Below, piece after piece: positions 6,460 to 56,313 of a stretch of DNA of 64,000 nucleotides. The position numbers and the translations under genes are program-made. The DNA is from a virus (taxonomy: Duplodnaviria > Caudoviricetes): IMG/VR virus record IMGVR_UViG_3300028588_000015, positions 32,001 to 96,000 of that record, one strand, 5' to 3'. The notes below the pieces were generated by a model, which was given only the letters and a program-made list of their open reading frames with translations, was not told the origin of the DNA and made no database searches. Every line of letters starts with the position of its first letter. Position 1 is the stretch's first letter.

Positions 6460-7143
6460 ATGACGACCATTATCTACAAGAATGGCAAACTTTACGCCGA
6501 CAGCCGCGTGACCTATTTCCGTCAAGAAGAAGATGGAACCAAGGTACTGGATAGCGTAGTCAACGATGTTCAGAAGATCATTGAACCTGACAACCTGTAC
6601 ATTGGTAATCGTAAGGTGCTCGCTTTGGCATGCGCTGGCGATATTGCGTGGACCAAGTACTGCACAGCCATGGATCAGGAAGCAGCTAAGCATGGCGAAA
6701 GTCTCGATATTTTGAACAAAGATTTCTACTCATCCATGTCGTTGTTTGCAGGGTTCGATACGCAGATGATCGCGGTAACGCCGAGCCGTGTATTCCTCAT
6801 TACCTTCCAATTTTTGAATATGACCTATCAAGAGGTCATCCCGACCTCATGGATCGTCATCGGTAGTGGGGTGGAAAATATCCCCAACCTCGGTGACACG
6901 GTGCTAAATGTGTCGGCCGAAATTGGCATGGCTGACGCAATCATGCATGACGAGGGAACTGGCGGTCCAGTAAGTTTTTGGAGGTACGGCCGAAAGGGTG
7001 TGCGGACGCTTGAACTGAACGCGGAGTACTCGTCGTTTACCCGCAAGATGGTGCGTAAGCTGCGTACTCTGCGCAATATCAAAGATGTGTGCTCGATCAT
7101 CAAAGCCCGCATCAAGGTCTATCCGAAAGCGCAGTACGCGTAA
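6460..7143 (+). CDS. Proteasome-beta/HslV-like Ntn-hydrolase
   Basis: N-terminal MTTII, ADSR, QKII (Lys33-like), IGSG and DEGTGGPV, in the order typical of proteasome beta subunits. Confidence 0.7.
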   Translation: MTTIIYKNGKLYADSRVTYFRQEEDGTKVLDSVVNDVQKIIEPDNLYIGNRKVLALACAGDIAWTKYCTAMDQEAAKHGESLDILNKDFYSSMSLFAGFDTQMIAVTPSRVFLITFQFLNMTYQEVIPTSWIVIGSGVENIPNLGDTVLNVSAEIGMADAIMHDEGTGGPVSFWRYGRKGVRTLELNAEYSSFTRKMVRKLRTLRNIKDVCSIIKARIKVYPKAQYA

Positions 7144-18876: not shown

Positions 18877-18908
18877 GACTTCCTCGCAATTGGGTAACAT
18901 ACTATTTT

Positions 18909-18955
18909 CGGCATAAGCGCTGGGAGTACCCAGCGCTTATTTTTCTTTTATGTCG
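18909..18955. terminator. Terminator with CGGCATAA and TTTTATGTCG flanks
   Basis: ATAAGCGCTGGG/CCCAGCGCTTAT stem with a T-tract. Confidence 0.7.
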
Positions 18956-18959
18956 TGTT

Positions 18960-19322
18960 CTATTTATCGTGCTTCAAGATGTGGAAGAAGTACCAAGGGT
19001 TTTTCTTGCATTCCTCCAGTATGGCCACCTTCTGCTCTTTTGTCAGATTCGGATTCCACGGATCAAGACTTTCAAGCGCTTTGTTGATGAATGTACGAGG
19101 AACCGGCTTCTTGACAATTGCGTAACCCGCTTTGTCGAGACTGTCGAGCAAACTATTGGCAATGTTGACCGGATCTTCGTCTCCATCATACCATCCGGAT
19201 AACCTTCCATGGTAAGCGCTATCGTTAAATGCCACACCGAGGGTAACGATGTCCTCTTTTTCAGTCTGATGTTGATTCACCTGCAAGTCGAGTAATGCCT
19301 CAGCAGTAATTTCATGACTCAT
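18960..19322 (-). CDS. Small protein with a terminase-large-subunit N-terminal-like motif
   Basis: ATG at 19322 behind AGGAG; C-terminus LDPWNPNLTKEQKVAILEECKKNPWYFF. Confidence 0.6.
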   Translation of the reverse strand: MSHEITAEALLDLQVNQHQTEKEDIVTLGVAFNDSAYHGRLSGWYDGDEDPVNIANSLLDSLDKAGYAIVKKPVPRTFINKALESLDPWNPNLTKEQKVAILEECKKNPWYFFHILKHDK

Positions 19323-39193: not shown

Positions 39194-39721
39194 ATGATTG
39201 ACATGCTCAATCAAGAAAAGCTTTTGGTGGCATTGAATGCTTTGAATTCTCCTCCAGAGCCACTTACGCTGGACAGTGTGACGTTCATGCCACCCGTGCC
39301 CTATATTGGCGCAGACCCATGCAATACCAAGATCAGTGTTGTCGCAAAGCCTGCAAAAGGTTATTCGAGTACGCTAGATTTTTATTACCATCGCATTAGT
39401 TTGACGGAAATGGGTAAGCTGGAGTTTTCTTCCATGCAGCCTTACACCGTCGACAATTTGTTATTGATTCTTAATAACATGAACGCGGCGCCGCTTGACA
39501 AGACTGCTGAATTGGCGCTGACCGATTTGGAAGCGATTAAGTTACCGCAGTTTGCCGCGATCGGCGACGCACAAACGCTGGCAATCAAAGCGCACTCTGA
39601 CTCGATTGGTTGGGTCGGTGAAACCGAGATGCTGCTGGCATTCAATTTGCCAGACGTGTCTCGTCTCGAAATATTGTACAATGAAATATTGCCCGCTATC
39701 TTTCCTGCGGCTTCTTCTTAA
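39194..39721 (+). CDS. Jumbo-phage tail-associated domain protein, paralog 1
   Basis: L.ALN...NTKISV.A....GY....F.YHRI.L pattern shared with 54423-54953. Confidence 0.65.
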   Translation: MIDMLNQEKLLVALNALNSPPEPLTLDSVTFMPPVPYIGADPCNTKISVVAKPAKGYSSTLDFYYHRISLTEMGKLEFSSMQPYTVDNLLLILNNMNAAPLDKTAELALTDLEAIKLPQFAAIGDAQTLAIKAHSDSIGWVGETEMLLAFNLPDVSRLEILYNEILPAIFPAASS

Positions 39722-39733
39722 AGGGATTTTTTC

Positions 39734-40204
39734 ATGTCCACCGTAACAGAAAGTATTCAGGCGATTATCGATGTCAGTGCCATTGCCGATAAATGGGCCA
39801 ATGGCTCGGCCAGTGAAACTGTGCAGACGAAAGCCGGTTCAATCAAAACATTGGCGGGGATCACTAATAGCGTTGTCGATGATTTGCTGTCGGTGCTGAG
39901 TGGCACCAGTAACTCGCAAGTCGTACTGTCAACTGGGGTCAAAACCTTTTTGACCCAACCCAATAAAGGCTTTAAAGCAGGGATGCTGATCTCGGCCACT
40001 GCGCCGGATGGCAGCTACATGTCGGGCACGGTGATCAGTTACGGCGTCAACACGCTCGTCATGAACGTTACCGCCAACAAAGGCAGCGGCACTTACAGCA
40101 GCTGGCAACTGACCTTCAGTGGACCGGCGGGTAACAGCCCTGAACCAATTCCGGACAACCTCGGTGTTGCCCCGACGTTTGTCACTAAGCTTCCTTGGGA
40201 GTGA
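39734..40204 (+). CDS. Small tail-fibre-associated protein
   Basis: 156 aa, G/S/T-rich beta protein at the head of the adhesin cluster. Confidence 0.6.
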   Translation: MSTVTESIQAIIDVSAIADKWANGSASETVQTKAGSIKTLAGITNSVVDDLLSVLSGTSNSQVVLSTGVKTFLTQPNKGFKAGMLISATAPDGSYMSGTVISYGVNTLVMNVTANKGSGTYSSWQLTFSGPAGNSPEPIPDNLGVAPTFVTKLPWE

Positions 40205-40206
40205 TT

Positions 40207-42045
40207 ATGGCCACAAATATTAAGCAAGTTACCCAAGCCCATCAGGGTGTGTTTTTCCCTCTGCGCGGCGATATGGGGATTGCTCTCGATTTTATTCCGA
40301 CAGACGGATTCGATGTGGGATTTGTTACCCACACCGATGAAGAATTCACCCTGACGAGTTCAGTTTCTCAAATCCGGCAACAAGACGGCACCCTTGCATC
40401 CGAGCTTGTAGTGGGCGGTCACGTAATGTTGTCGTTTATGTTGATTTACAACGCAGAAGACAATATCTGGGAAATCACTCTCAACAACGTGGCGGTGCAG
40501 TCTTCAAATGACAATGGTGCCACCGGCGCCGGCAATCGTCCCGAGATGCTGTTGGAACCAGATGAAACCAATACCATCACCCCCGATGGTTTGATTTCCA
40601 ATCGTTTTCGTTTTGTGATGCGATCCGATACGAAAATTGGTGACCCCATAAACTACACCAGTGCCGAACATCTTTATTTTACGGGTCACCAAGACGAAGT
40701 GGGAAATCGTAAACTGGAATTTGCTCGGTCGATGTTGCTGCTCGACGCGCTGCCGTATACTCCCCCTGCGGTACCAAAGGCGATATTCGTCATGGAAATG
40801 CGGCCCACTGTCAACGTTGACGACGGGTCGTTGAACTGGACAGTAAACGGCTCGCCTGATAAGGCATCGCGTGGTTTTGCCATGATCACTGAACTGGTAC
40901 AAATTGGTGACAAAACGTATTACACCGTTGCCAGCGCATTCGGTCCGGCGTATAACAACCTCCAAAATGGTGAAACTGCCATCATTCTCCGTAATGGCCG
41001 CGCCGCTGAAGCCACAGGCACCTTGGTGGGTACCGCAGGTGCAGTGTACTATATCTACGGCGTCCCGGTGCCCGCCAATGGCGCAGACCAACGACCGGTG
41101 CTTGAATTGTTGCAGACCGACTTTAGTTCGGGTGGTGCAAACCGACCAGCCTTCGGCAAAGCACTTCTGAACTTGGAGGGTTCTGGCACCACTTACGTAC
41201 GTGACCTGAAAGTCACCGGTGCCCGTAATGACAGCAGCGATGCACGTGGTATTTGCCACAATGATTCGGGCATGAAGTTGGTGACGAACAATGTGGAAAT
41301 TGCAAACTGCAACAACGGCATTCTGACAGGCAATGCCGCCACTTGCGGCGACACGGAAATGTACGACAGCATGATCACCAAGTGCGGTATCGGCGGTCCA
41401 GCGCCCGATGACCCAGCGCATGGCTATACCACAGTTGGTTTTACGCACAGCGTCTATTTCGGACATAACCCATCCACTGTCAGGATGGCTCGAGTATCGT
41501 TGCTCGACGCTGTCCAAGGCAACAATCTGAAGTGCCGCAGTGCCAGACTGTATGCCACCCAGATCGTCTGTACTGGCGCCAGTTTGGGTCGTGAGTTGGA
41601 ACTCCCTAACGGTGGCTGGGCAGAAATCGACAATTCGATTTTCTGGAAAAAGAATCAAGAAGGCACCGGTAACCTGGCCATGGTTGGTGGTAACGGGCAA
41701 GGCGTGAATATGGGTGAAGGCTTGGACACGACGCGTCCCCGCAAATACAAGTTCACCAACGTTCTGTTCCGCAGCGATTACGTCCTCAATGGCCGCGATG
41801 GCATGTTGGTGTGTAACCTCGATCATGAAGTGCCTCTCGAATTTATCGACTGCGACTTTCAAGGTCCAGCTGTTACCAACAACAGCAATGACCCGAATGA
41901 ACAACCCCTGTACGCTGGTACGACCACGGTAAATGGCATTCGTTACAAACCGAGCGCACCACCGGTGTACACTTACACGGGGGGTCCTATCGGCCCAGTG
42001 TTGACGCCAGGCGCTACTGTCCTTCCAATGACCCCGATTAACTGA
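40207..42045 (+). CDS. Tailspike-like protein with a right-handed beta-helix (pectate-lyase-like) domain
   Basis: NNVEIANCNNGILTGN, HSVYFGH, NNLKCRS and ELELPNGG repeats; N-terminal PLRGDM domain shared with the next gene. Confidence 0.7.
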   Translation: MATNIKQVTQAHQGVFFPLRGDMGIALDFIPTDGFDVGFVTHTDEEFTLTSSVSQIRQQDGTLASELVVGGHVMLSFMLIYNAEDNIWEITLNNVAVQSSNDNGATGAGNRPEMLLEPDETNTITPDGLISNRFRFVMRSDTKIGDPINYTSAEHLYFTGHQDEVGNRKLEFARSMLLLDALPYTPPAVPKAIFVMEMRPTVNVDDGSLNWTVNGSPDKASRGFAMITELVQIGDKTYYTVASAFGPAYNNLQNGETAIILRNGRAAEATGTLVGTAGAVYYIYGVPVPANGADQRPVLELLQTDFSSGGANRPAFGKALLNLEGSGTTYVRDLKVTGARNDSSDARGICHNDSGMKLVTNNVEIANCNNGILTGNAATCGDTEMYDSMITKCGIGGPAPDDPAHGYTTVGFTHSVYFGHNPSTVRMARVSLLDAVQGNNLKCRSARLYATQIVCTGASLGRELELPNGGWAEIDNSIFWKKNQEGTGNLAMVGGNGQGVNMGEGLDTTRPRKYKFTNVLFRSDYVLNGRDGMLVCNLDHEVPLEFIDCDFQGPAVTNNSNDPNEQPLYAGTTTVNGIRYKPSAPPVYTYTGGPIGPVLTPGATVLPMTPIN

Positions 42046-42091
42046 TCCACACTGGGTACGTCAATGTACCCAGTGTGTTTGGAGTGTATAC

Positions 42092-43477
42092 ATGGCACAA
42101 AACACATACGCAGTGACTGCGACTGACAATCAAAAGCGCATTCCCTTGCGTGGCGATATGGATGTTGCATTGAACACCGAGCAATTGCCCACTTTCATGG
42201 TGCAATTTATCACGTCTGACTTTGGTTTTTTCAAGTTCAAAACCACCCTCGGTATCCTGGATTTCGCGGGCAATGTTGTCAGTGAAATTTCCATTGGTGG
42301 GCGCCCCAATACCTACGTGGAGCTGATGTACGACGCCAGTAAATCACTGTGGCGCATTACTGGATCGAACGTTCCTGTCCCACGACGTTTCGCCCCTAAA
42401 TATCCGTGGGAACTCGATATTCTCGCGTCGGTCACGCTGACCGCCACACCGCTTTCCCGCGCGACGGCCGGGGATATTGTGTTGCGGGCAAATGTATTTT
42501 CCTTACTGCCAATTGCCAAGGTCGAATTCTTCTGCGATAACCTGTTGATTGACACGGATGTTTTGCCGCCGTACACGGGCAAGGACACCGTCAATTATAC
42601 CCACAACGGCAACCGTGTCTATACCGCAAAGGTTACAACCTTGCTCGGCATCACGGCTACCAGTGATCCGGTGATTGTGACGGTGAACATTGCAGCGCCA
42701 CCGGTGCCCGATACCACACCGCCCACTGTGGCCTTGAGTGCATCGCGCACAAGTGTTACGAGCGCTGGCACGGTCAAACTGACTGCGACGGCGAGTGATG
42801 ACCGAGCAGTGAGCCGCGTTGAGATCCTGCGGGGCGCTGCGGTGGTGGCCAATCTTACAGCGCCACCCTACACGCTGGACCAACTGTTCTCTTTGGCTGA
42901 GAATGGCACCATCAGCTACAGCGCACGTGCGTACGATGCGGCCAACAATGTCGGGCAAAGTAATGTTGTCGACGTCGTGGTCAACATTGCGCCGCCGGTT
43001 CAAGTGACGCAGATGGTGATCGACCCTGTGACTTTGGCCGAGATGTCAACCGCAGCCCTTGCGACAGCACTGGGTCCTAATCGTACTGAACGCCGTGCGG
43101 CAGTGGCCCAAGCCGTGATCGATGCATTCAAGCCGACTTATGTTCTCTATGTCTATCGCAATGGCGCTACCGTCTTTACCGTCCAGTTTGACAGCAGCTT
43201 GACCGTGGTAACCGAAGGCGTGGGTACGAATGCCGAAGTCTATATTGGCCTTGGCGACATCGTCAGCGGCCAGGCGGCCGTTGCTGCGGATATTAACACC
43301 GGCGCGTGGACGTTCTTGCTCGCTGGCGGTGCCGATGCCCAGCGCACCATCGCAGGTACGGTGGGTCCTGACGGGTCCGGCAAGAACATCACCCTGAGTG
43401 GGTCACCGTTTGTGGGTCAGGAATTTGACGCCACCGTGATGTTCCGGATCGATCGTTCCACTGACGGCCTGGCGTAA
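42092..43477 (+). CDS. Modular protein with two bacterial Ig-like (Big_7-type) domains
   Basis: DTTPPTVALSA...TATASDDRAVSRVEI...APPYT...SARAYDAANNVGQS plus a second copy; PLRGDM N-terminal domain. Confidence 0.75.
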   Translation: MAQNTYAVTATDNQKRIPLRGDMDVALNTEQLPTFMVQFITSDFGFFKFKTTLGILDFAGNVVSEISIGGRPNTYVELMYDASKSLWRITGSNVPVPRRFAPKYPWELDILASVTLTATPLSRATAGDIVLRANVFSLLPIAKVEFFCDNLLIDTDVLPPYTGKDTVNYTHNGNRVYTAKVTTLLGITATSDPVIVTVNIAAPPVPDTTPPTVALSASRTSVTSAGTVKLTATASDDRAVSRVEILRGAAVVANLTAPPYTLDQLFSLAENGTISYSARAYDAANNVGQSNVVDVVVNIAPPVQVTQMVIDPVTLAEMSTAALATALGPNRTERRAAVAQAVIDAFKPTYVLYVYRNGATVFTVQFDSSLTVVTEGVGTNAEVYIGLGDIVSGQAAVAADINTGAWTFLLAGGADAQRTIAGTVGPDGSGKNITLSGSPFVGQEFDATVMFRIDRSTDGLA

Positions 43478-43501
43478 CGCTTACCAAAAAAAGGATTGTT
43501 C

Positions 43502-46135
43502 ATGACCATCAAGACTGACCGCGTAACCTCCAATGAGTTGCGCAAAATTCCCACCCAGAAAGGGCAAGCCGAACACCTTGCCCAAGTGTTCGGTAACAGC
43601 CGTGTCTTTGTTATCCGCCAAGATACTTCTCCAACCGCCAAGTTTCCGATGCTGACTGGCGTCGAGAAAATCAACATCACCAACACGGGCGCCCTCGAAA
43701 TTAAAGCGGGCGCAGTATCGAACTTCGGCGTGCTGGCCACTGTCAACAAGTTTACCGCATTCGACGTCAGTGTCGGTAAAAGTGTGTTGCGTGTCTCGGG
43801 CAATGGCCGCTTTTATCAAGGCACGATTGGCACCACGCCCGATTGTGACTTTGTGGTGCCATTCAAGAACTTCGACCCAACCAACGGTTTGGCGTTTGAC
43901 GAAAGCGCTACACTCAGTGCTTACATGTACCGACCTTCAGGTACCGGTACACCGGCGCCTGATCGTACCGACGACATGGCGTACTCAGTCGAAATCTACA
44001 ACCACAGTCAAGGCGGTAAGGTCACACTTGACTGCACACTGACGATCGACACACGCGATGAAAACGTCGTGTTCGAAGACAAGGATCAAGCCCGTAACAT
44101 CGGCGACACCGCCATGTACCGCACATCGCAGGATGTGCAGTGGGGCAAGGTCGGCGTAGGGGCTACGCTGCTCATTTCTGACAAAAGCAACAGCGAGTCG
44201 GGTTTGGCGCCCTTGCAAGAACTCATTATCAATTTCGCCCGCAATGGTGCTTGGGTGTCCTACCCATTCACCACCACGTACCTGCGCAACCTGATGACCA
44301 TGACCTTGCCGCCGTTCAAGGCTATTTTGCGCAATCGGCGTGGTGAAATTCTCAACATCTTCCAGATGCACGGTGGCGAGGCCATTAACGATATGGCGTT
44401 GTTTTCGGGTAATCTTGCCCACGGCGGCCGTACCGAAGTGCGCCCCCTTCAGCCGCGTTTCAATTGCGCAATGGCTTTGTTCTGGGAAAGCGATCGGCCG
44501 GCACTGAATGACATGTACGACACGTACATGCCTGGGTTGGATCAATTCCGTGAATCGATGTGCAAAAACCAGTCGAGTTTTACGGAAACTGAACCATTGA
44601 TCACCGGTGGTTATGGCGGTAACTCGCTCAATGGCTCGAACCACATGTACTATGCAGGCCGTTGGCCAGAAGCCAATGTTTACAAACTAATCAATGACCC
44701 GTTCCTGGATGATTTCATGAACTCCAACGGTAGCTCAGCCTACCGCGCCGGTTGGATTAAAGGGTACGATGGCTCTGAACCTGGTGCGTATGCCGGCAGC
44801 AACTGGTACACGTCCCCTGGCGGTCCGCGTCCAGACCGATCGGTGTACCCATCGGTACTGGCCCTGTGGTTGGACAACCTCAATGGTGTACGCACACAAG
44901 ACAATGTCCCCTACAAGGACATGGCGCATGGTTTCTATCGTGGACTGTATAACCACAGCAACCATTTCATGAATAACGCCAGTACCATGGAAGGCATCAA
45001 CAAGAACGATTTGTTGTATGACCGCGTCACGGCTGAAAATACCTACTACGGCAACGATCCGCGTTCAATCGGGGTATCGTTCAATGGCGACCAGCGCGAT
45101 GGCACCGGTTCCTGGAATATGGACATCGATGGCGACATGATCATGTCCGGTTGGGCCCGCGATCCACTGCACGATCACGCACAGCGCGGTATGTTTGGTA
45201 TGCATGTCCGTAGTCCGGCATATGCACTCTGGGGGCGCTTTGACACCATGAGCGCCATGATGCTGCACCAGTTCCCTGAAACGGGTGTGCGGGGTCAATA
45301 CATGATCCGTACCATGGCTTGGCAGTGGTTCCAAATGCTGGTGGCGTGGAAGAATGCTACCAAACATGCCCGTGGTTTCTCGCGTGCTGAAATGGAAGCG
45401 TATTGGGTGCGGATGCTCGAAGGGGTGTACAAATACCATTACAAACCCGTTCACATCGACATGGAAGACTCGGGTTATGCACGCGGTGTTCGTAACCTCG
45501 GTATTGCCCTGCGTCAGCATGACAATGGCTATGGTTGGGCTGACCCGGGCGGTAAGCTCGGTTATTACATGGCATGGACGCTGCAACTCATGAAGCAAAC
45601 CGGCCTCTGGCATACCTTGATCGCCAAGAACGAGCGTTGCTCGCTGGCTTTGCATGGGCTGGTGCGCGACATGGACACCCATTGCTTCGGTCTGATGACG
45701 CAAGCCAATGGCGCTGTCCCTGGCAATTACCTGTACATCCCTGGTTGGCCGTCATTGGATGTGATTCCCGTGAGCTGGCCGGCATGGTATGCAGAGCACC
45801 TCAAAGACCCGGTGGGTGACAATGACTGGATCTACCGAAGCGGGTATAACGACGATGGTAGTGAGTACCACCGCCGCTACGAACCGAACCAAGATATTGC
45901 GTGGAACCACTTCGAGGCATATGCACGGATGCGCAAAAACTTCTTCCCGGAAATCGTGCACCCGCTGATGGACCAAGCGATCTCGGAATTCGATCGTTAC
46001 CGTGCAGATGTTACCGGTCGCGTCAACGCGGCTGCCACACCCACCGAGAAGCGAAACATGGACTACCCGTTCCGCTCAGCCGGGATTTGCCCGGTCAAGC
46101 CACCGGCACCCGGTAAGTTACGCATGCAGGCATAG
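43502..46135 (+). CDS. Large protein of unknown function in the adhesin cluster, possibly carbohydrate-active
   Basis: 877 aa, rich in W/Y/D/N/H, helical C-terminal half; the N-terminus resembles the C-terminal domain of the previous gene. Confidence 0.65.
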   Translation: MTIKTDRVTSNELRKIPTQKGQAEHLAQVFGNSRVFVIRQDTSPTAKFPMLTGVEKINITNTGALEIKAGAVSNFGVLATVNKFTAFDVSVGKSVLRVSGNGRFYQGTIGTTPDCDFVVPFKNFDPTNGLAFDESATLSAYMYRPSGTGTPAPDRTDDMAYSVEIYNHSQGGKVTLDCTLTIDTRDENVVFEDKDQARNIGDTAMYRTSQDVQWGKVGVGATLLISDKSNSESGLAPLQELIINFARNGAWVSYPFTTTYLRNLMTMTLPPFKAILRNRRGEILNIFQMHGGEAINDMALFSGNLAHGGRTEVRPLQPRFNCAMALFWESDRPALNDMYDTYMPGLDQFRESMCKNQSSFTETEPLITGGYGGNSLNGSNHMYYAGRWPEANVYKLINDPFLDDFMNSNGSSAYRAGWIKGYDGSEPGAYAGSNWYTSPGGPRPDRSVYPSVLALWLDNLNGVRTQDNVPYKDMAHGFYRGLYNHSNHFMNNASTMEGINKNDLLYDRVTAENTYYGNDPRSIGVSFNGDQRDGTGSWNMDIDGDMIMSGWARDPLHDHAQRGMFGMHVRSPAYALWGRFDTMSAMMLHQFPETGVRGQYMIRTMAWQWFQMLVAWKNATKHARGFSRAEMEAYWVRMLEGVYKYHYKPVHIDMEDSGYARGVRNLGIALRQHDNGYGWADPGGKLGYYMAWTLQLMKQTGLWHTLIAKNERCSLALHGLVRDMDTHCFGLMTQANGAVPGNYLYIPGWPSLDVIPVSWPAWYAEHLKDPVGDNDWIYRSGYNDDGSEYHRRYEPNQDIAWNHFEAYARMRKNFFPEIVHPLMDQAISEFDRYRADVTGRVNAAATPTEKRNMDYPFRSAGICPVKPPAPGKLRMQA

Positions 46136-46211
46136 CTGAATCAACAGCGCCAAGGCGGCTATTGTTCGCCGCCTTGGCTTTTTAAAGAATATATTAACGA
46201 GGCATAAACAC

Positions 46212-49200
46212 ATGAGCGATCCTGTATACAGCACACCAATGGGTGATCCGACTCGTTTGCGTGAGTTGGTGAAGGTGGTAGAAAGTGGCGCCGCCCCGAC
46301 CTGGGTGTATACGCCTGACAGTGGTGCGGATGCACCGGCCTACGGTCAGGGTGGACTTTTCCCAAGTTTTATCAAGGCCGGCACCGATGGCTCCATCGCG
46401 GTGCGCTTCACCGGTTTTCAAAACGCCACCATTGCGTTCATTTCCGACAAGACCAAGCGTTGGGATGGTGCGACGCCGTGGCGGATCGATACGTACCAAG
46501 CGGGGCACGCCTATAAGCCTGTACTGTACGGTAACTATCTGACCGATGGCCCAAATGTCAATGCGGAAGGCGGCGACATCGTACAAATGCGCCGCACCGG
46601 CACGACGGTTTATGCAGAAGTGTCGAAAGACAATGGCGCCACCTGGATCAACATTTACACTTGGCCGAATGTTGATCCGGACATGGATCTGTACGGTGAA
46701 GTGGGCGTGTTCTATTGGATGAGCCGCGCTGAGGGGGTATGGGCCAAAGGCTTGGATTCCCAAGTCAATCCAGTCGCGCCCACGCCCCCTGTGCTTGCTT
46801 CGGCCATTGCCTCAAACGTCGCCGGCATGGGACGGGTGGTGCTCAATTTCAATGAACCCATCGACAAGAGCAAGATTCCGGACAAGTCGGCGTTCAGTGT
46901 ATCAGGGCATACCGTCGCTGCGGCTACGAATATGGCAAGCTTGGCAAACGCTATCGCTCTCGACGTCACGGGTTTGATTGCCTTGGGTGAGGTTGTCACG
47001 GTCACCTACGTTGCGCCAGCCACCAACAGCATTATCGACCTCGACGGCACGCCCGGTAACAGCTTTGGCCCAGTGGTGGCAATCAATAACGTACCGCGCC
47101 CGCTTGGTGTTCGCCGACGCCTCGGTTATGTGCCGCCCGGTATCGCAGAAGGCGGGGTGGCGCCAAATTGGACCTATGCCAATACCGATGGCAATTACAC
47201 GACCTGGGCCAACACTGCCCAGGCACTGAATCGCATGCCAGCAGGTCGCGATGGATCGTTCGAACTTGTCATTGGCAACTACGCCAATGGTTCGTTCATT
47301 GGCCTCACGGCAAGTTCCCAAGTCAACACGCTCCCTGAATATTCTCTGAATATTTACCAGTTCGGCTACCCCTACACACTGTCTGCCGGTAGCGATGCGG
47401 CAGCAGTTGCTGTTTTGGCGGCGCCCGGCGATATCTGTCGTATGCGTCGTTTGGGTAACCGCATTTATGCAGAAGTGTCGAAAGACAATGGCGACAGTTA
47501 CACGGTGGTTGGCACCTGGTCGAACACACCCCAAGTTGATCTGTACGGCGAAGTTTCGTTGGCCTTCAATACGAACATCAGTGCAGTTTATAGCACTGGT
47601 TTCGTGGCAGCGACGGCTTACGACGTGTTTGTCGATAAAGCCCGAGACTTGGATCTGCGCGGAAAAAGCTGGACAGCAGAACAAGTCAGTTATCTGAACA
47701 CTTCGGTTGCCACCTTGGCGCCGGATGGCAGTGGCGGGTTGTACAAGCAATCCAATGCAGCCACCCTCGGTCTGGCGTGGACGCAGCGTAACGAGGACGC
47801 TGGTTCGGCGGTTTTCTTCACGCACGATGGCGGTAGTTACGCTGCCATTCCGCAATTGGTGGTGGCCAGCAACTTGCTGGAAACTTATACCGACGGTATC
47901 CGATGCTCGTTCACTGACGGTGGATTCTTGCTGGAAGAAATCACCAATGGTGCCGTAGGCGCCATGGTTTCCAATACGCTCGCCTTGGTGGCGGGCGAAA
48001 AGTATTGTTTGGAAATTGGCCAAGCCGATACGGTCAGTGACAAAGATTTTGTTTTGCGTATCAGCACCGTGGTCGCAGGTGAGCGCGGTTTGCTGGTGGC
48101 ATACGCCTTGCTCAATGCGCGAAACGCTCATCCGGGTAAGAACGCAGGGCTGCTGTCGAGCGCGGTCGATAGCGCTTTCGATACCGTCACGCGGATCGAA
48201 ACGCTGGCGCAGACAATCCCCGTGCGGATGGTCCCATCAAAGCTGCTCATCGAGGCGGCCTCGAATCAAGTGACGCAAGGATTTTCGCAACGTTTGACGG
48301 TACGGACTGACCAGTCTCTGGCGGCTTTTGAAAGCGTGGAAGTCAATATCACCGACAACGCTGGTGGCCAATTTGATGTGGCCAACTTCACGCTCTCGGG
48401 TACCAACCAGCTCCAGCAGGTTAACTGGCGGCCGAGCAACGTGATCGGTGCCCGTACGCTCACGGCCCAGCAAGTCACCGGTCTTGACGTGGACGACGGT
48501 TCGCTGCATTTCGAAGTGACCGTACCGATTCCGGCCAGCGCACTTGTTTACACCGGCGAAAAGGAAGTCGAACTAGGAAAGACGCTGAAGTTTGTGCTGT
48601 CTACCAACCAGCCACTGCTGGTGGGCGACACCGAAGCCTACACCGTGTCCCTCGTCGGTACTGGCAGTGTGGCACCAATGTCCGGTACCCTGAACAATGG
48701 GGACCTCAGTCAGGAACTGGAATTCACACCGCAAACGGTGGGTGTGACGAAGATTAAGTTCACCCCCATGGGTTCGCCTGTCCTTCCGGCCTTGGAAGTG
48801 CAAGTGACGGTGAAGCCCCGTTCACCGACGTTTGTCAAGGGTATCAACGTCTACGAAGTCGGCATTGGTCACCAGTTTGCAACTGCCAAACAGGCGTCCG
48901 CCTACATCGCCGACAAGAAGTTGGTCGATACCCAGGCAAAAGTCTATTTTGAGTACTACGGTGATCATTATTTTGATACCGACTTTGTTGCGGGTAACAC
49001 CAGCCAAGAGTACAACATCACTCACCGGCCGGCTGCGGGTGAAGGTTACCTGGACAAAGCTACTTCAGGTTTGTTCCATTATCCGGATGCTGGTACTGAG
49101 TTAACCTTCCCGGGTTCGTATGTCACTCTGCAACGCGGCACGGTGATGGAAAACTTCCGGATGAAGTTTGAAAACAATACGACACTGCTGTTCTCGCCCA

Positions 49201-52073
49201 GCAACGGCGCTGGCGGCCAAGCGGCAGACGCATACCTGCGCAATAACCGTATCCTGGTTCAGCGGCCGGGGACCAGTGAAGTGATCCAGTCCGGCGAGTA
49301 CGCCATCAACTGCCACGTACAAAACAATCTGTTCTTGTTGCAAACCCCGGGTATCTATATCAACCTGCGTGATAGCGCGGGTAATGTAACCGGTAACACA
49401 GTTATCGCGCAGGGAGCAGCATTGGGCAGTGCTGTATTTGCCATGAGTGGTAACTTCGATTACAACAATACGAAAGTGCAGAACAACGTCTTTATTGACG
49501 TAGGGGCAGTGCCGTTTAACATCGATGTGAACCGCCCAGCACCTGAACAGGTGTACAGTAACAACTTTACCAACGCAGCGATTAGCGCAGCGGTGGCGCC
49601 AGTGTACACAGTCAATACCGTCGCACCGTTTGTTGCAGATAAAGCAACCGATCTGCGGCCAGTGGTCAACGGTCCTTTGTTCGGAAAAGCGTCTGCGTAT
49701 GCGACTTCGACGATCGACGGCGCCGGCCAAAACCGGGGCTTTGCACCGGACGCAGGTGCATTCCAAGCAATTCCGGCCAGCAAATTGCCCATCGTTAAAT
49801 CGACTGGGCAAACCGTCAGCGGGCAGTATGTCCGTTATACGGTCAGTGTGCTCAACGAGATTGGTTCGTTGACGGCGCGCATGATCCCCGATGCTGTTGC
49901 GCCCGATGGCGCCCAAGAAGTCGGACCTCTGCCGTTTACCGTGAATGGCGGAACAGCGTATGTGGATATTCTGGTACCAAAGGCGGGTCTGTATGCCCCG
50001 GCAGAATTTGTCGCCAGCAATGATGGTGGCGTCGTCAAGTCGTATTCCGACCTGCCGCTGCGTGTGGTACCTTTGAAGTCGAGCGCAACATTCGACGATT
50101 TTGTCGGGGTGGCCGATGCTGTCGTGGCGGCTGGTCGACCGACGTTGCCGTTCTTCGGCACTGTCGTTGACTCCGGTGTAAATATCGTCAAGCCATTGGT
50201 GATCTTGTCAGTTGACAATGGTGACTTTTTCGCCGATGGCAGCGTTACGGTTACCGCAAGTGTTGCCAGCCCGATCGGGGTCGACCGGGTTGAACTTCTG
50301 CGTAACGGCGTGAAAGTCGACACGAAAACGCAGGCACCGTACGCGCTCACCCAGAACTTGACGCGCGCTGATAACGGTACTGTCGTCTACAGTGCCAAAG
50401 CGTACGACACCCAAGGTAACTTTACGGTAAGTGAAAACTTCCCAATCTATGTGAGGATACCCGCCGCTGGTGCCACGGTACCCACGGTCACGAGCATCGC
50501 ACTTGTCCCACCGAGTTACGATGGCGATGTGGCGCATCTTGAGATTAAGTTCTCGGAAGCGATGAATACCGCGCGTGAATTCGATTACAGCGGTGTTTGG
50601 AACTTCGGTATCGATGCTCACTTTACCACCGGCTTGACTGCATTCACGGATGCGACGACGCTGCGGATGAATTACGAATACGTGGCCCCCGTGTTGCCCG
50701 GGGAGCAGGCGTATTTCAGCTACCGTAAGGATTTTCTGCACGGCTGGCGTAGTGCGGCTGGGGTGTTGGTGGAATCGTTCGATGGGTTCCCTGTCGTAAA
50801 TAATCTGCCTGAACAAGGATCGCCCGGTGCGTATGAAACATTCACCAATGTGGCCGATGGGGCGAACGTGGCCAGTGTCGGTTGGGATGGCGGAGCGGAA
50901 GATACGCAACAAGTGTGGCATGCTTCTACGCAACTGGTGCGCGCGGCAGGCGCAGGTGGCGCGTATCCGGCCACCTCGGGACAAATCTTCGCCAGCTTCC
51001 GTCGGAAAGGACATGTTGCGCCTGGATGGGGGTATCGCGATGGCACCGGTGTGGCAGCGTTCTTTAAGTTAACTGCCGCTGGTCAGTCGCCTTACGGCAT
51101 CGCGATCATGTGTGACGATGGCAATGACGGCATCAGTAGTTTCGGCCTGGTTGCAGTGCGGGTTGAGGTGACGCCGGACGGCACGCTGCAATTCCGTCAC
51201 GCTAACAATCGTCGGCCGCCGCTCGCTTACCCGCCGAAAACCGGCGCAGCGCTCGATGTACTGCAAGAGTATGCGCTGGAGCTGGCCCGTGTTACCACGC
51301 AAGCTGAAACAACCTTTGCAATGCGGTTGTGGAAAGCCACCAATGGCGTTCGCACTAGCCTGATCAATTCGGCGTCCTGCGTAGTGAACTATAAGGCCAT
51401 CTTTAACGATGCGCCCATCGCGAAGCTGTATGTCACGGATGTGTCTGCACCACCGGCACTTCTGACCCGCGTGGAAGAGATCACGAATGCGTTCTCGGCG
51501 CGCGAAGTGGTGTCGCTGCTTCCTACCGGTAACCGCTCCACCTTGACCTCCATCCGTAACATTGTTGCGACCGGTTCCGGTGCTGACATGAGTTACGCGG
51601 GTAACGGCGCGGCGCTGTCGAGCCGGCCCGGCGGTATTTTCGCCATGCGTTTCTTAAATGTAGCGCAGCAATCGGGTATTTTTGCAGATGGCGGCGTATC
51701 GGCAGTAGTGGGTGCGGTAGTGGATAACATCTACCTGGGCGCATTCATCACGCCGTCGGCTGGTGTGTTCCCAACCGAACCTGTGGCCGCAGATAAGATG
51801 CACCTCGCTATCTGCGCGCCTGCCATCGGGCAAGCGTACCAGATTTACACGGAAGGCCGGAATCGTTTGCCCACTAAAAAGATGTTGGTGGCAGAGGGTG
51901 ACGTCATGCGTGTGCGTACTTGCGGTCTGGAGGTCTTCTTTGAAGTGAAGAAGAATGATGTCTGGACGCGCATCTTCCGTATCCGCAATGCAGCAGGTGG
52001 TCTGACCGACTATTACACTGCGGCGCAGTTGTTGTTGCCCGGTAATTCGGCAGTATCGGCGATTTACCAGTAA
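46212..52073 (+). CDS. Giant multidomain adhesin/tail fibre (lectin-like repeats, SwmB-like, Ig-like, beta-helix)
   Basis: 1953 aa; repeated MRR.G..YAEVSKDNG..W domain, two SwmB-like modules, a Big_7-like module, and a beta-helix from GIGHQFAT to DGAGQNRGFAPDAGAFQ. Confidence 0.75.
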   Translation: MSDPVYSTPMGDPTRLRELVKVVESGAAPTWVYTPDSGADAPAYGQGGLFPSFIKAGTDGSIAVRFTGFQNATIAFISDKTKRWDGATPWRIDTYQAGHAYKPVLYGNYLTDGPNVNAEGGDIVQMRRTGTTVYAEVSKDNGATWINIYTWPNVDPDMDLYGEVGVFYWMSRAEGVWAKGLDSQVNPVAPTPPVLASAIASNVAGMGRVVLNFNEPIDKSKIPDKSAFSVSGHTVAAATNMASLANAIALDVTGLIALGEVVTVTYVAPATNSIIDLDGTPGNSFGPVVAINNVPRPLGVRRRLGYVPPGIAEGGVAPNWTYANTDGNYTTWANTAQALNRMPAGRDGSFELVIGNYANGSFIGLTASSQVNTLPEYSLNIYQFGYPYTLSAGSDAAAVAVLAAPGDICRMRRLGNRIYAEVSKDNGDSYTVVGTWSNTPQVDLYGEVSLAFNTNISAVYSTGFVAATAYDVFVDKARDLDLRGKSWTAEQVSYLNTSVATLAPDGSGGLYKQSNAATLGLAWTQRNEDAGSAVFFTHDGGSYAAIPQLVVASNLLETYTDGIRCSFTDGGFLLEEITNGAVGAMVSNTLALVAGEKYCLEIGQADTVSDKDFVLRISTVVAGERGLLVAYALLNARNAHPGKNAGLLSSAVDSAFDTVTRIETLAQTIPVRMVPSKLLIEAASNQVTQGFSQRLTVRTDQSLAAFESVEVNITDNAGGQFDVANFTLSGTNQLQQVNWRPSNVIGARTLTAQQVTGLDVDDGSLHFEVTVPIPASALVYTGEKEVELGKTLKFVLSTNQPLLVGDTEAYTVSLVGTGSVAPMSGTLNNGDLSQELEFTPQTVGVTKIKFTPMGSPVLPALEVQVTVKPRSPTFVKGINVYEVGIGHQFATAKQASAYIADKKLVDTQAKVYFEYYGDHYFDTDFVAGNTSQEYNITHRPAAGEGYLDKATSGLFHYPDAGTELTFPGSYVTLQRGTVMENFRMKFENNTTLLFSPSNGAGGQAADAYLRNNRILVQRPGTSEVIQSGEYAINCHVQNNLFLLQTPGIYINLRDSAGNVTGNTVIAQGAALGSAVFAMSGNFDYNNTKVQNNVFIDVGAVPFNIDVNRPAPEQVYSNNFTNAAISAAVAPVYTVNTVAPFVADKATDLRPVVNGPLFGKASAYATSTIDGAGQNRGFAPDAGAFQAIPASKLPIVKSTGQTVSGQYVRYTVSVLNEIGSLTARMIPDAVAPDGAQEVGPLPFTVNGGTAYVDILVPKAGLYAPAEFVASNDGGVVKSYSDLPLRVVPLKSSATFDDFVGVADAVVAAGRPTLPFFGTVVDSGVNIVKPLVILSVDNGDFFADGSVTVTASVASPIGVDRVELLRNGVKVDTKTQAPYALTQNLTRADNGTVVYSAKAYDTQGNFTVSENFPIYVRIPAAGATVPTVTSIALVPPSYDGDVAHLEIKFSEAMNTAREFDYSGVWNFGIDAHFTTGLTAFTDATTLRMNYEYVAPVLPGEQAYFSYRKDFLHGWRSAAGVLVESFDGFPVVNNLPEQGSPGAYETFTNVADGANVASVGWDGGAEDTQQVWHASTQLVRAAGAGGAYPATSGQIFASFRRKGHVAPGWGYRDGTGVAAFFKLTAAGQSPYGIAIMCDDGNDGISSFGLVAVRVEVTPDGTLQFRHANNRRPPLAYPPKTGAALDVLQEYALELARVTTQAETTFAMRLWKATNGVRTSLINSASCVVNYKAIFNDAPIAKLYVTDVSAPPALLTRVEEITNAFSAREVVSLLPTGNRSTLTSIRNIVATGSGADMSYAGNGAALSSRPGGIFAMRFLNVAQQSGIFADGGVSAVVGAVVDNIYLGAFITPSAGVFPTEPVAADKMHLAICAPAIGQAYQIYTEGRNRLPTKKMLVAEGDVMRVRTCGLEVFFEVKKNDVWTRIFRIRNAAGGLTDYYTAAQLLLPGNSAVSAIYQ
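46609..47493 (+). repeat. 30-nt perfect direct repeat (46609-46638 and 47464-47493)
   Basis: TTTATGCAGAAGTGTCGAAAGACAATGGCG occurs twice, 855 nt apart (in frame). Confidence 0.9.
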
Positions 52074-52082
52074 CTTGAAGTA

Positions 52083-52123
52083 ACCGCATAAAGGCCGGCC
52101 ATAGAGGCCGGCCTTTATGCGGT
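52083..52123. terminator. 18-bp perfect hairpin terminator ACCGCATAAAGGCCGGCC/GGCCGGCCTTTATGCGGT
   Basis: Perfect inverted repeat with a 5-nt loop after the adhesin stop codon. Confidence 0.8.
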
Positions 52124-52140
52124 AATGGTTAGATTCAAAC

Positions 52141-52160
52141 AAAATATGGCCACATATTCT
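52141..52160 (+). promoter_or_regulatory. Putative phage promoter motif, copy 2
   Basis: AAAATATGGCCACATATTCT, nearly identical to 6377-6397. Confidence 0.5.
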
Positions 52161-52215
52161 CCGTGTAGCATGAAGCACTATTGATGCTTCGACTACATTC
52201 ATTAGTTAGGAGGAG

Positions 52216-53337
52216 ATGGACATGAGTATCAAACAAACTATTGGACACCGTATTTCGATCCTGCGCACGCTCTTGATTTTGTGCGTTGTATTTCTTCACA
52301 CCGTACTTGCGCCGAACATCCTGAAGGTGGATTTGACCGATTTTCAAACTGTCTTATCCTGCATCTTTCAAGACCGCTTAGGGCGTTTTGCAGTGCCGAC
52401 CCTCACGATGATTTCGGCGTATCTGTTGTTCGGTGCGAATCTGGACCAAGCACCGGGTAAGCTCTATAAGAAGAAATTTGCAACGCTTGTGGTGCCGTTT
52501 TTCTTCTTCAATGTTTTGTACTTCGCTGTTGTGTATGCGGTGGCGACTGTAACGGGCATTGGTAGCTTGCAAGAGGTGGTCCATAAAAACCACGAACAGA
52601 TCATCAACGCATTAACCGGATACAACGGTATGCCACTCAATGGTGCCACGCATTTTCTGCGTGATTTGTTCGTACTGGTGCTGTTGACGCCGGTGTTCAG
52701 TTTCTTTCTGCGCCGCGCCCCGTTGGTTGGTTGCTTCCTTATTGGCTTGGTGTTTTTAACCAACATGGATGGTAACTTGATCCAGCGCAATACCATGGCA
52801 GTAATGTTCTATCTTGGCGGCTGGTGTGCGGTCAGCAAAACTGATGTCACGATACTGGACAAGCATGCGGCCTTGGCGTGTGTTATCCTGCTGTTGGCCT
52901 GCACACTGTCGGTGTTCCTGCGCATCGACAACCGGATGATTTATCTGCTCTCGCCTTTCTTGGTCTGGAGTGCAGCGTCGAAACTGGTTGGCACCGCGCT
53001 GGGTAACTGGGCGGCTAAAAACAGCAAATACAGCTTTTTTGTGTTTCTTGCCCATGCACCGATGCTGCACGTTTTGGACTTGCTGCACGTCAATTCGATT
53101 GCACCAAAACTGCCATTGGTTTCTTCTGCCATCGAAACTGCGGTTGTTTTTATCGTGCTGGCAGCAGTCTACGATATCGCAGCAAAACGTATGCCTTCAT
53201 TGTTTAACATCATGATCGGCGCACGTGTTAAAACCGTGGTCATCGCGGATCGTCGCCGTCAGCCACGTCCCGATGGTGCCCCGGTATTTTCCCCAGAATA
53301 CCGGACGTCGTTCATTTCCAATCTTTCTTTTCGTTAA
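52216..53337 (+). CDS. Acyltransferase family 3 (OafA/ExoH-like) integral membrane protein
   Basis: ILRTLLILCVVFLH, FAVPTLTMISAYLLF, KKKFATLVVPF, HFLRDLF and SFFVFLAH motifs; about 10 hydrophobic segments; AGGAGG RBS. Confidence 0.88.
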   Translation: MDMSIKQTIGHRISILRTLLILCVVFLHTVLAPNILKVDLTDFQTVLSCIFQDRLGRFAVPTLTMISAYLLFGANLDQAPGKLYKKKFATLVVPFFFFNVLYFAVVYAVATVTGIGSLQEVVHKNHEQIINALTGYNGMPLNGATHFLRDLFVLVLLTPVFSFFLRRAPLVGCFLIGLVFLTNMDGNLIQRNTMAVMFYLGGWCAVSKTDVTILDKHAALACVILLLACTLSVFLRIDNRMIYLLSPFLVWSAASKLVGTALGNWAAKNSKYSFFVFLAHAPMLHVLDLLHVNSIAPKLPLVSSAIETAVVFIVLAAVYDIAAKRMPSLFNIMIGARVKTVVIADRRRQPRPDGAPVFSPEYRTSFISNLSFR

Positions 53338-53483
53338 GGAGAATACCGTGAAAAAATGACCGCATAGCAATTGTCAGTTATTGCTTTAGTGTAAATTTTA
53401 ACTGACGTTTGTCTATAGTGTGGATGTATTCAACCGCCTGGTTGAGTACACTCTACTCCCTTCACCAGAACTAGGAGCTTTCC

Positions 53484-53942
53484 ATGCAAAAATCGCGCAC
53501 TCTGCGAGCGCGTACCTTCGTGGCCCTCGCCATGATTGCCGCGCTCGCGTTCTTCACCCATTCGCCGCCAGCCCAATCGACCAGCTCCGGCGCCGAGACC
53601 GTGAAATCCATCTACCCGACCCAGACCGAAGGTGCCGGCATCGCCGCCACCAAGATCGACATCGCACCGGCCGCGGCCGTGGCTGATCGCGCCGTGCCCC
53701 GAACGCCGGCCGCGAACATCGATCTGGAAAAAATGCTGACCTCGACCGACACCCTGGCCATCGTCTCGGGCGCCGAACCGGCCGCCGCGTTCGACTCCCG
53801 ATTGCGGGGCTCGACCAAGAGCGAATTGACCATGTACACCGACCTGTCGACCAACAGCATCCACAGCCACGGCGCCGGCGGTACGGAACCGGGCGGGCGA
53901 TTGCGCCGCTCGATCCTGCTGACCCGTACCGACCTGACCTGA
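53484..53942 (+). CDS. Putative secreted or membrane-anchored small protein
   Basis: AGGAG RBS; signal-peptide-like MQKSRTLRARTFVALAMIAALAFF; C-ending codon bias like the highly expressed head genes. Confidence 0.65.
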   Translation: MQKSRTLRARTFVALAMIAALAFFTHSPPAQSTSSGAETVKSIYPTQTEGAGIAATKIDIAPAAAVADRAVPRTPAANIDLEKMLTSTDTLAIVSGAEPAAAFDSRLRGSTKSELTMYTDLSTNSIHSHGAGGTEPGGRLRRSILLTRTDLT

Positions 53943-53944
53943 CC

Positions 53945-54300
53945 TGCCGCCGGCCTGGGCCGCCGCGACGCCCGCGAGAGGGTTGCTCCCGGCTGTTCCA
54001 TTGCCACAAGTCCCTGTCCGCTGCTGTGGACAGGGCACCTTTCCTGGACCTCTGAAATAGGCCAGGTTCGACCGAACGCAGATGCCTTCTCGGGCTTGCG
54101 AGCCCCTGAACTGGGCGCTGCCGGTCAACTCGCGCAGCAGGCCGCGGCCGATCGGCGGAATCAATGTCGATGCGGTATCGCCGCCTACTGCGCGCGCTTC
54201 TCGACCAAATCCACTGTGACGGGACACAGTTCACCACCGAATCGGATTAGCTACCCGGTTCATAACGACAACCACTGAGGGTGATAGCCAAATCATGCCT
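53945..54300 (+). ncRNA. Candidate structured non-coding RNA or long structured 3-prime UTR
   Basis: About 350 GC-rich nt with no credible ORF and at least six consecutive helices, ending at a terminator; no known family recognised. Confidence 0.35.
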
Positions 54301-54320
54301 CACGGGTTTTTGGAAACCAA

Positions 54321-54369
54321 ATAAAGGCCGAGAGACTACGCGTACATAGTCTCTCGGCCTTTATGCCGC
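54321..54369. terminator. 18-bp hairpin terminator plus TATGCCGC
   Basis: ATAAAGGCCGAGAGACTA/TAGTCTCTCGGCCTTTAT. Confidence 0.8.
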
Positions 54370-54422
54370 TTACCTATCCTATGTTAATTTACTCACCCTT
54401 TGCCTGGATAGATAGGTGCCCC

Positions 54423-54953
54423 ATGTTTGTTTCTGATTTCACCAAATCCCCTGAAGAAGTGGTGATCGACCTCATCAACTTCGACAATGGCAAGAACTTC
54501 ACACCGGCGACCTTGCGGATCGTAGATGTGCCGCTTGCTATCCCCAAATCCCCCCCGATTTTCCGCAACACCGAAATTGTGGTGACCGCCCCTGTCGCGG
54601 TAAAGAAGCGCGGTCAAGCGCGCCTCTGGTATAACCGCATTGATCTCAACACGGTGCCCGCCAATCGCAGCACGGTCTTTGAAACGCCCACAAAAATTAC
54701 CAAACTGAGCGAAGTCATCCCGGCCGTCAACGAACGGTATCGGATCAACCTCACGCCCGCTGATTATATCGACGTCCCGATGACAGTTCTGGATTTTGAA
54801 CCGGTGAAAGTGACGATTCAAACTGCACCTCACTCGTTGGTTTACATCGGTTATCTGGAAATCGATGTCGTGGCACTGCCGGTCGATGTACCACCTATCG
54901 GTTCGGTCTTCCTCAACCGCTTCTTGGACATCTTCAAGTACTTCGCCAAATAA
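54423..54953 (+). CDS. Jumbo-phage tail-associated domain protein, paralog 2
   Basis: VIDLINFDN...NTEIVVTA...LWYNRIDL...SLVYIG; same pattern as 39194-39721. Confidence 0.65.
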   Translation: MFVSDFTKSPEEVVIDLINFDNGKNFTPATLRIVDVPLAIPKSPPIFRNTEIVVTAPVAVKKRGQARLWYNRIDLNTVPANRSTVFETPTKITKLSEVIPAVNERYRINLTPADYIDVPMTVLDFEPVKVTIQTAPHSLVYIGYLEIDVVALPVDVPPIGSVFLNRFLDIFKYFAK

Positions 54954-54958
54954 GTGTA

Positions 54959-54994
54959 ATAAAGAGACAGGGGCACCCCTGTCTCTTTATGCCG
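54959..54994 (+). terminator. Terminator plus TATGCCG
   Basis: ATAAAGAGACAGGGG/CCCCTGTCTCTTTAT. Confidence 0.75.
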
Positions 54995-55063
54995 AATGAA
55001 AGAAAAATACTTTGCTCGGTTATCTAATGTGAAAGGGTATAACCGCTATTTTTCTTTGGAGTC

Positions 55064-55432
55064 GTGATGCGTAAATTCATCAAAAACATGCGCCACTGGT
55101 GGCCAGAACTTAAGCTGTGGTGGCGTGTCAAAAGAACCCCACTCCAGATCATTGACACCGAAGAATACTACAGTGATTATGATCTGGAAATTCTGACACT
55201 GTGGGGCGCGCACGCCATTGTAGTGCACGAATATAAACTCATGGGTGCGATCATCCGTACCGAGGAAATGGTCAAGGTCAATCATCCGCAGTTGCTGCGC
55301 GATAAGACCATGGCGGCTGATTTTTTGATCAAGCACTATCAAAAGTTTCAGTTTGTTGTAAAGTCTGTTACTTTCCCGCAAAAGGACGGTAGCATGCTGT
55401 ATTTCCCTGTCGGTCTTCCGGCAGTTCATTAA
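55064..55432 (+). CDS. Hypothetical protein
   Basis: 122-aa ORF with a GGAG RBS. Confidence 0.55.
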   Translation: MMRKFIKNMRHWWPELKLWWRVKRTPLQIIDTEEYYSDYDLEILTLWGAHAIVVHEYKLMGAIIRTEEMVKVNHPQLLRDKTMAADFLIKHYQKFQFVVKSVTFPQKDGSMLYFPVGLPAVH

Positions 55433-55457
55433 CTATAAAGAAAGAGGAGTTTCAATC

Positions 55458-55922
55458 ATGTTTGGTCTTTTTAAACGCAACAAAATCAATCTCAACATCC
55501 GCTTCCATACGGCTTCGGCGGGCCTACCGGAACATGGTACCCTGTTGGTCACCCACCGCGACCATGGGCTGGAAAAGAAGCCGGTGCGTTTCTCGTTCGT
55601 CGACGTGGCCACGCCGCCGCAACTGGACCGCGCCGTGTTCAACTACATCTACGACAAGGCCGAGGCCGCAGGCTTCCAGGTGCACAGCTTGCACTCGTAC
55701 GCCAATGTGGCGGTGAGCACTGCCCAGAGAGCTGCTGCCCGGCAGGCAGTGCTCGACAGTCCGAACGCAAAAGCGATCCGGGCATGGGCGGAAGAACAAA
55801 AGCCCAAGGCACCGCCCAGCGAACAATCGAACATGCAGGGTTTTGGTCGAAGCGGCCAAGTCGATACGATCGGTGCCGGCGCCAAGGGTATGCCGTACGA
55901 TGAATTCAAGAAAGGGGCATGA
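55458..55922 (+). CDS. Hypothetical protein
   Basis: 154-aa ORF with a GAGGAG RBS and codon bias. Confidence 0.65.
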   Translation: MFGLFKRNKINLNIRFHTASAGLPEHGTLLVTHRDHGLEKKPVRFSFVDVATPPQLDRAVFNYIYDKAEAAGFQVHSLHSYANVAVSTAQRAAARQAVLDSPNAKAIRAWAEEQKPKAPPSEQSNMQGFGRSGQVDTIGAGAKGMPYDEFKKGA

Positions 55923-55923
55923 T

Positions 55924-56313
55924 ATGCGAATGGCTTACCGCAACGATTTCACCGCCGTGCTCGACATCTTCATGATGCTCTTGACCTGGTTCTTCAAGTC
56001 GTTTGACAACACGGTCACGTTCGTCATGCATGTGTTCAATTTCAACGTGGTGGTCGGCTTTCACAGCAACCTCGACCCGAAGAAATGCTACGGCGTGGCG
56101 TTCTACAATACGCCGAATGGTACGCAGTCACGGCCCTTCACAGTGGACCGGCCGGAGAATCTGGACGAGCCGCCGCCAGTCACCATCAAGTCAATCTTTT
56201 CACAGATCAAGCAGATGGGTTACGACGTGGTCCAAATCGAGGTGCGAACGGACCGCGAACTTCGGGTGTATCGAGATGGTGTCGAGCGCCCGCTTTTAGT
56301 GCAGGAGCGTTAA
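55924..56313 (+). CDS. Hypothetical protein
   Basis: ATG at 55924 right after the previous stop; 129 aa. Confidence 0.6.
   Translation: MRMAYRNDFTAVLDIFMMLLTWFFKSFDNTVTFVMHVFNFNVVVGFHSNLDPKKCYGVAFYNTPNGTQSRPFTVDRPENLDEPPPVTIKSIFSQIKQMGYDVVQIEVRTDRELRVYRDGVERPLLVQER

Follow-up and report, generated by a model that had tools for sequence, protein, structure and literature searches.

The locus and its neighbouring genes

The window analysed here, 64 kb in full, corresponds to bases 32001-96000 of a 225,547-bp IMG/VR virus record. This record represents an uncultivated phiKZ-like jumbo phage, in which phiKZ-type multi-subunit RNA polymerase, DNA polymerase and virion protein families are present. 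Its proteins share 35-46% identity with those of cultured jumbo phages, the nearest of which is Burkholderia phage FLC9. Between the stop codon at 53942 and the ATG at 54423 lies a gap of 480 nt (53943-54422), which an earlier note on this DNA had described as a GC-rich stretch and the longest non-coding gap. Our ORF tiling agrees, as the second-largest gap spans 336 nt, though this tiling is crude and not rigorous and a spurious antisense ORF overlaps the 480-nt gap. The GC content of 53450-54250 is 63-73%, against 52.8% for the genome. No other 800-bp block of the genome is as GC-rich, although 26 reach about 60-64% GC, and the block extends over the upstream gene (53484-53942) too. The features of the locus are as follows:

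52136-52168, + strand: promoter-like motif of ~30 nt (AAAAT, spacer, CCACATAT, spacer, GTG) ahead of the acyltransferase gene
52216-53337, + strand: gene for an acyltransferase-3 membrane protein of 373 aa (Pfam PF01757, E 1.3e-26), with a strong GGAGG ribosome-binding site
53484-53942, + strand: orphan gene of 152 aa with a signal-peptide-like N-terminus, in the 5' part of the GC-rich block
53943-54039, + strand: first part of the gap, with two hairpins (53965-53986 and 54010-54037), without codon periodicity and outside the RNA contig
53965-53986, + strand: helix GCGAC/GUUGC
54012-54035, + strand: helix CCCTGTCC/GGACAGGG
54040-54320, + strand: array of six hairpins (54043-54066, 54070-54126, 54131-54194, 54213-54230, 54239-54261 and 54270-54308)
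54043-54066, + strand: helix CCTGG/CCAGG
54092-54105, + strand: helix GGGCT-TGCG-AGCCC
54131-54194, + strand: helix CGCGCAG/CTGCGCG
54213-54230, + strand: helix ACTGTG/CACAGT
54321-54369, + strand: phiKZ-type intrinsic terminator with a perfect 18-bp stem, an 8-nt loop and the tail TTTATGCCG
54423-54953, + strand: gene for a DUF7941 virion/tail protein of 176 aa (Pfam PF25613, E 3e-23; phrog_1037), with a paralog at 39194-39721

Judged by its ribosome-binding site (AGGAG, 6 nt ahead of the ATG), its third-codon-position GC (0.77-0.90) and its N-terminus, the ORF at 53484-53942 is a real-looking gene. A word-indexed search found no homolog of its 152-aa product among 5.8 billion proteins. The sole match from an exhaustive HMMER search was weak (E 3e-8 over 11 stretches) and was to the PKD_5 repeats of a 3972-aa type-IX-secreted adhesin; the exported protein may be a lone Ig-like domain.

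The two DUF7941 paralogs (39194-54953) flank ~15 kb of fibre, acyltransferase and orphan genes. This ~15-kb block is absent from FLC9, the closest cultured relative, in which the matching structural genes are contiguous with no gap. In a 249.6-kb uncultivated relative (G001), DUF7941 forms the head of a 1174-aa fibre gene and there is no gap ahead of the gene. Judging from these genomes, the accessory block is restricted to one lineage. No flanking repeats were found and thus there was no sign of a mobile element; searches of proteins, prokaryote genomes and viral contigs found no donor of the GC-rich block.

Coding potential, RNA evidence and relatives

The gap is non-coding, in that it holds no credible ORF. 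Codon periodicity ceases at 53942, and the only + strand ORFs in the gap are of 45 and 60 aa and lack a ribosome-binding site, while real genes here carry GGAG. A tblastn search of the gap with the adhesin, the only relative of the 152-aa protein, gave nothing, and so we found no protein remnant. Long antisense ORFs are a usual by-product of GC-rich DNA. Those found here (265, 227 and 131 aa) were rejected, as all lack a ribosome-binding site and are rich in Arg, Pro and Ser like junk frames; two of them also have the wrong GC periodicity, whereas the third position of the 131-aa frame is likewise GC-rich.

The earlier note had judged by eye that the stretch was no tRNA or tmRNA, and ARAGORN bore this out with 0 tRNA/tmRNA genes in the window. 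In the Rfam 15 scan that the same note had proposed, 0 matches reached the gathering thresholds in the whole window. At E ≤ 10 there were solely hairpin look-alikes of microRNA models on the terminator, scoring 12-20 bits against thresholds of 44-82.

Only two public runs were found to contain the 4-kb stretch around the gap: a DNA run that is probably its source, and a metatranscriptome of leaf litter, which contains 5% of the words. When all contigs of the RNA run were compared with 52000-56000, one 280-nt contig corresponded to 54052-54331 with 0 mismatches, at a depth of 16.8. The remaining, flanking 3.7 kb of 52000-56000, with the acyltransferase, 152-aa and tail genes, was absent from the contigs of this run. 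DNA carry-over is unlikely because these unassembled flanks act as a silent control. The contig crosses the GC drop near 54240 and runs into the 5' arm of the terminator, and it is therefore phage sequence and not a host look-alike. Its end at 54331 falls within that 5' arm, which is where coverage would be expected to have tapered off if the RNA has its 3' end near 54366. Its start at 54052 falls inside hairpin 1; it need not mark the 5' end of the RNA, and an internal start site may exist. It should be noted that this is a single contig from a single run, that contigs carry no strand, true ends or level, and that 53945-54051 lies outside it, so that the RNA evidence concerns the 3' part only. 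The RNA itself is probably real. The depth figure of 16.8 is identical for the RNA contig and for a 54.8-kb DNA contig; this is unexplained and we treated it as coincidence.

Searches for relatives of the RNA covered several collections. A blastn search of 53400-54420 against 50,697 phage records gave no homolog. In viral contigs, the 152-aa gene, the DUF7941 gene and an AAA ATPase were each used as anchors to locate matching loci, and no relative of the RNA was found there. Metagenome contigs searched via the DUF7941 gene yielded just one distant phage, the 249.6-kb relative, from which the RNA is absent; a DNA search of this genome gave one 20-nt chance match. A covariance model built from the single sequence (54067-54232) had no matches in the 249.6-kb phage, a 210-kb relative, FLC9 or RSL2, and exact-pattern scans of prokaryote genomes and viral contigs were empty. 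Within the phage's own genome there is no paralog of the RNA, and only the terminator tail recurs. None of these searches yielded a homolog from which the covariation support called for in the earlier note could be drawn.

Hairpins, terminator and promoter-like motifs

The consecutive helices listed in the earlier note were all found at their coordinates, and all are part of the minimum-free-energy fold. In a partition-function fold of 54036-54372, the six hairpins of the array had a mean pair probability of 0.91-1.0 per helix. No long-range helix or multi-way junction was predicted in this span, the lone closing helix having a probability of 0.09. The modelled fold is thus a row of independent local hairpins and not an intricate RNA.

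Several features of the sequence within and around these hairpins may be recorded. Positions 54033-54043 could pair with the DUF7941 ribosome-binding region (54411-54421) over 11 nt with one mismatch; as a candidate long-range pairing this was rejected, being unused in the predicted fold of 54005-54445. Inverted matches of 11 nt and 8 nt and a direct match of 13 nt link the big hairpin (54140-54185) to coding sequence of the 152-aa gene (53636-53678); they may be fortuitous, given the GC-rich DNA, or stem from a small duplication within the locus. In the fifth hairpin, the loop (54246-54254) contains the 6-nt palindrome UAGCUA; loop-loop dimerisation is in principle possible and the palindrome may well be chance.

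We also compared the folding energy of the stretch with that of shuffled sequences, a check suggested alongside the first description of the helices. The stretch did fold better than shuffles, only moderately so however, and the opposite strand did nearly as well: 53943-54300 gave z = −2.24 (2/100 shuffles as good), and 54040-54322 gave z = −3.84 on the + strand (0/200 shuffles as good) and z = −2.36 on the − strand. The span including the terminator reached z = −7.3, which is mostly owed to the terminator. Counts of G-U pairs by strand (8 vs 10) favoured neither strand. As a background from the phage itself, 160 segments of 280 nt were scored along the 64-kb window (mean z −1.07, sd 1.43, minimum −5.08); the region ranks in the top 3-9% of them, and several of the better ones contain terminators. 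The excess of the fold over chance is moderate and not exceptional for this phage. Four windows, 6843-7122, 53243-53522, 55243-55522 and 18843-19122, fold deeper (z −4.1 to −5.1, 20 shuffles each).

These figures bear on the reading that the stretch is a functionless GC-rich spacer that arrived together with the orphan gene, folds merely as any GC-rich sequence would, and is transcribed only by ordinary read-through, the contig being a sampling accident of a metatranscriptome with low coverage. The GC content equals that of the adjoining gene, many other windows have z-scores in the same range, both strands fold, and the block is missing from FLC9, where the matching genes are gapless; no conservation was seen. 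However, a contig at a depth of ~17 between flanks whose coverage was too low for assembly favours real enrichment, and z = −3.84 with 0/200 shuffles as good also speaks against a mere spacer, which we consider an unlikely explanation.

The 18-bp terminator previously placed at the end of the stretch was confirmed as a perfect 18-bp inverted repeat with arms at 54321-54338 and 54347-54364, and it has a pair probability of 0.99. The stem (54321-54364) is followed by TATGCCG. In phiKZ, terminators consist of a conserved GC-rich hairpin and then a TTAT-containing tail, YTTATKYYGT (PMC10914365); here the perfect 18-bp stem is followed by TTTATGCCGCT, which assigns it to the same type. The layout of ATAAAG, stem and CTTTATGC(C/G)G is repeated at 52087-52123 and 54957-54993, and the same terminator form ends most units of this phage. 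No other terminator-like site was found between the stop at 53942 and the terminator at 54321-54364.

Listing the sequences that follow terminator tails exposed the promoter-like motif, whose middle element is C/A-CACATAT. There are at least 7 copies in the genome (genome positions near 2535, 7492, 17876, 38390, 84150, 137700 and 208387), all on the + strand and just upstream of genes, often directly after a terminator. A second upstream motif, AAAAATAC followed after ~15 nt by T-GTG, occurs at 55001-55030 of the window and at genome positions 13553, 103189 and 128537; it precedes other genes, including one at 55064, and may mark another promoter class. Neither motif was found in 53338-54420, and the simplest unit is therefore one that runs from a promoter at ~52150 through the acyltransferase gene, the 152-aa gene and a 380-nt tail to the terminator. 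The motif at 52136-52168 is likely to be the start of the transcription unit ending at 54364. TATG is the core of the phiKZ late-promoter motif, and none was found in 53943-54320. A TATG-containing stretch at 54375-54384, 3' of the terminator, could serve the tail gene.

The order of structured RNA, terminator and, 58 nt after the terminator, the start of the DUF7941 tail gene raises the alternative that the RNA is a prematurely terminated leader of this gene, comparable to small RNAs that 201phi2-1 and phiKZ produce from 5' UTRs, or else an attenuator resembling a riboswitch. In 201phi2-1, 8/11 small RNAs arise by premature termination, one of them ahead of a tail gene (PMC11512511). Several findings point the other way: the terminator's probability of 0.99 was unchanged in folds of 54005-54445, with no competing anti-terminator helix, and since its form closes most units here it is no special attenuator. 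DUF7941 is also unrelated to phiKZ gp182 (BLASTP gave 16-residue chance matches only), the RNA exceeds the described species of under 250 nt, no start-site motif was found, and the TATG stretch past the terminator could serve this gene. We consider a leader very improbable.

Origin of the RNA and comparison with known systems

The earlier note had read the stretch as an unannotated phage RNA or a regulatory 3-prime UTR. The RNA contig, the non-coding status and the position between stop codon and terminator agree with the description as a phage RNA or 3' UTR; the word regulatory found no such backing. Our preferred reading, which we judge about as probable as all others combined, is that the stretch is a stable 3'-UTR-derived RNA of the unit encoding the acyltransferase and the exported protein. 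In this accessory unit, transcription would begin at the promoter-like motif at ~52136-52168, cover first the acyltransferase-3 gene and then the orphan gene for the exported protein, and stop at the terminator at 54321-54364; the stretch would be the long tail that is left untranslated at its 3' end. The final 0.3 kb (~54040-54368, with the six hairpins and the terminator hairpin) would then outlive the decayed coding part as a stable fragment, because hairpins stacked on a terminator block 3'-to-5' exonucleases. We infer co-transcription with both genes, processing and the + strand, as we would any function. The most probable effect of the tail would be the protection of upstream messages. 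Action in trans as a small RNA is a conceivable but unsupported alternative, and the ordinary interpretation, in which the 3' tail is protective, is no less likely than a regulatory one.

The contig would also fit an independent non-coding RNA gene of ~320 nt, with an unrecognised start near 54030-54052, an end at the terminator and a function in trans, such as that of a protein sponge or decoy. The stretch is the sole piece of the 4-kb stretch assembled from RNA and has a well-defined fold, giant phages encode small RNAs (eleven in 201phi2-1; PMC11512511), and 32/149 mapped start sites of phiKZ have no recognisable motif (PMC10914365). On the other hand, the upstream sequence has neither promoter-like motif and no AT-rich tract, the fold is a plain row of hairpins in which GGA motifs are not enriched by eye, and no relative or paralog was found, so that we regard a separate gene as doubtful. 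The more specific proposal of a lineage-specific, abundant, ~320-nt trans-acting RNA of a nucleus-forming jumbo phage, built of six rigid hairpins set on a terminator and titrating for example a host RNA-binding protein or nuclease, is in our view quite unlikely.

Should the stable RNA prove real, it would join the few indications that non-coding RNAs arise from the ends of transcription units in phiKZ-like jumbo phages. Its source would in that case be an accessory surface-modification unit and not a core gene, and environmental RNA data could flag such RNAs in uncultivated phages. The element is of an ordinary kind, with no conservation or function attached to it, and without relatives, host or target it opens no long-standing question.

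Among known systems, GOLLD (RF01998) and ROOL (RF03087) are long phage non-coding RNAs, as the present RNA would be, and are abundant in RNA samples. The stretch differs from both, as it has no match to either model at E ≤ 10 and no multi-way junctions or long-range helices, and is half their size or less. The small RNAs of 201phi2-1 and phiKZ (sRNA005 / sRNAgp182) are similar in phage group, kind of terminator, tail-gene neighbour and discovery from transcript ends (PMC11512511, PMC10914365). They are 5'-UTR products of <250 nt, conserved ahead of gp182-family genes (PMC11512511, PMC10914365), whereas the neighbour here is the unrelated DUF7941 protein and no conservation was found; the resemblance does not extend to sequence, with no DNA match in the phage records.

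In its genomic setting the unit is similar to phage morons: it is a block of deviant GC content that sits among structural genes, carries a promoter-like motif and a terminator, and is absent from FLC9. Morons are accessory units of lambdoid phages that deviate in GC content; they are defined in temperate phages, and a 380-nt untranslated tail such as the one seen here is rare among them.

Bacterial small RNAs derived from 3' UTRs, such as CpxQ, SroC and DapZ, are usually 50-150 nt in size. The phage stretch differs from these in its length of ~320 nt, its six hairpins, its phage-borne origin and its lack of conservation. It is like them in its position between the stop codon at 53942 and the intrinsic terminator at 54321-54364, which it would share with the mRNA, and, to judge by the one RNA contig, it may likewise be enriched over the coding part.
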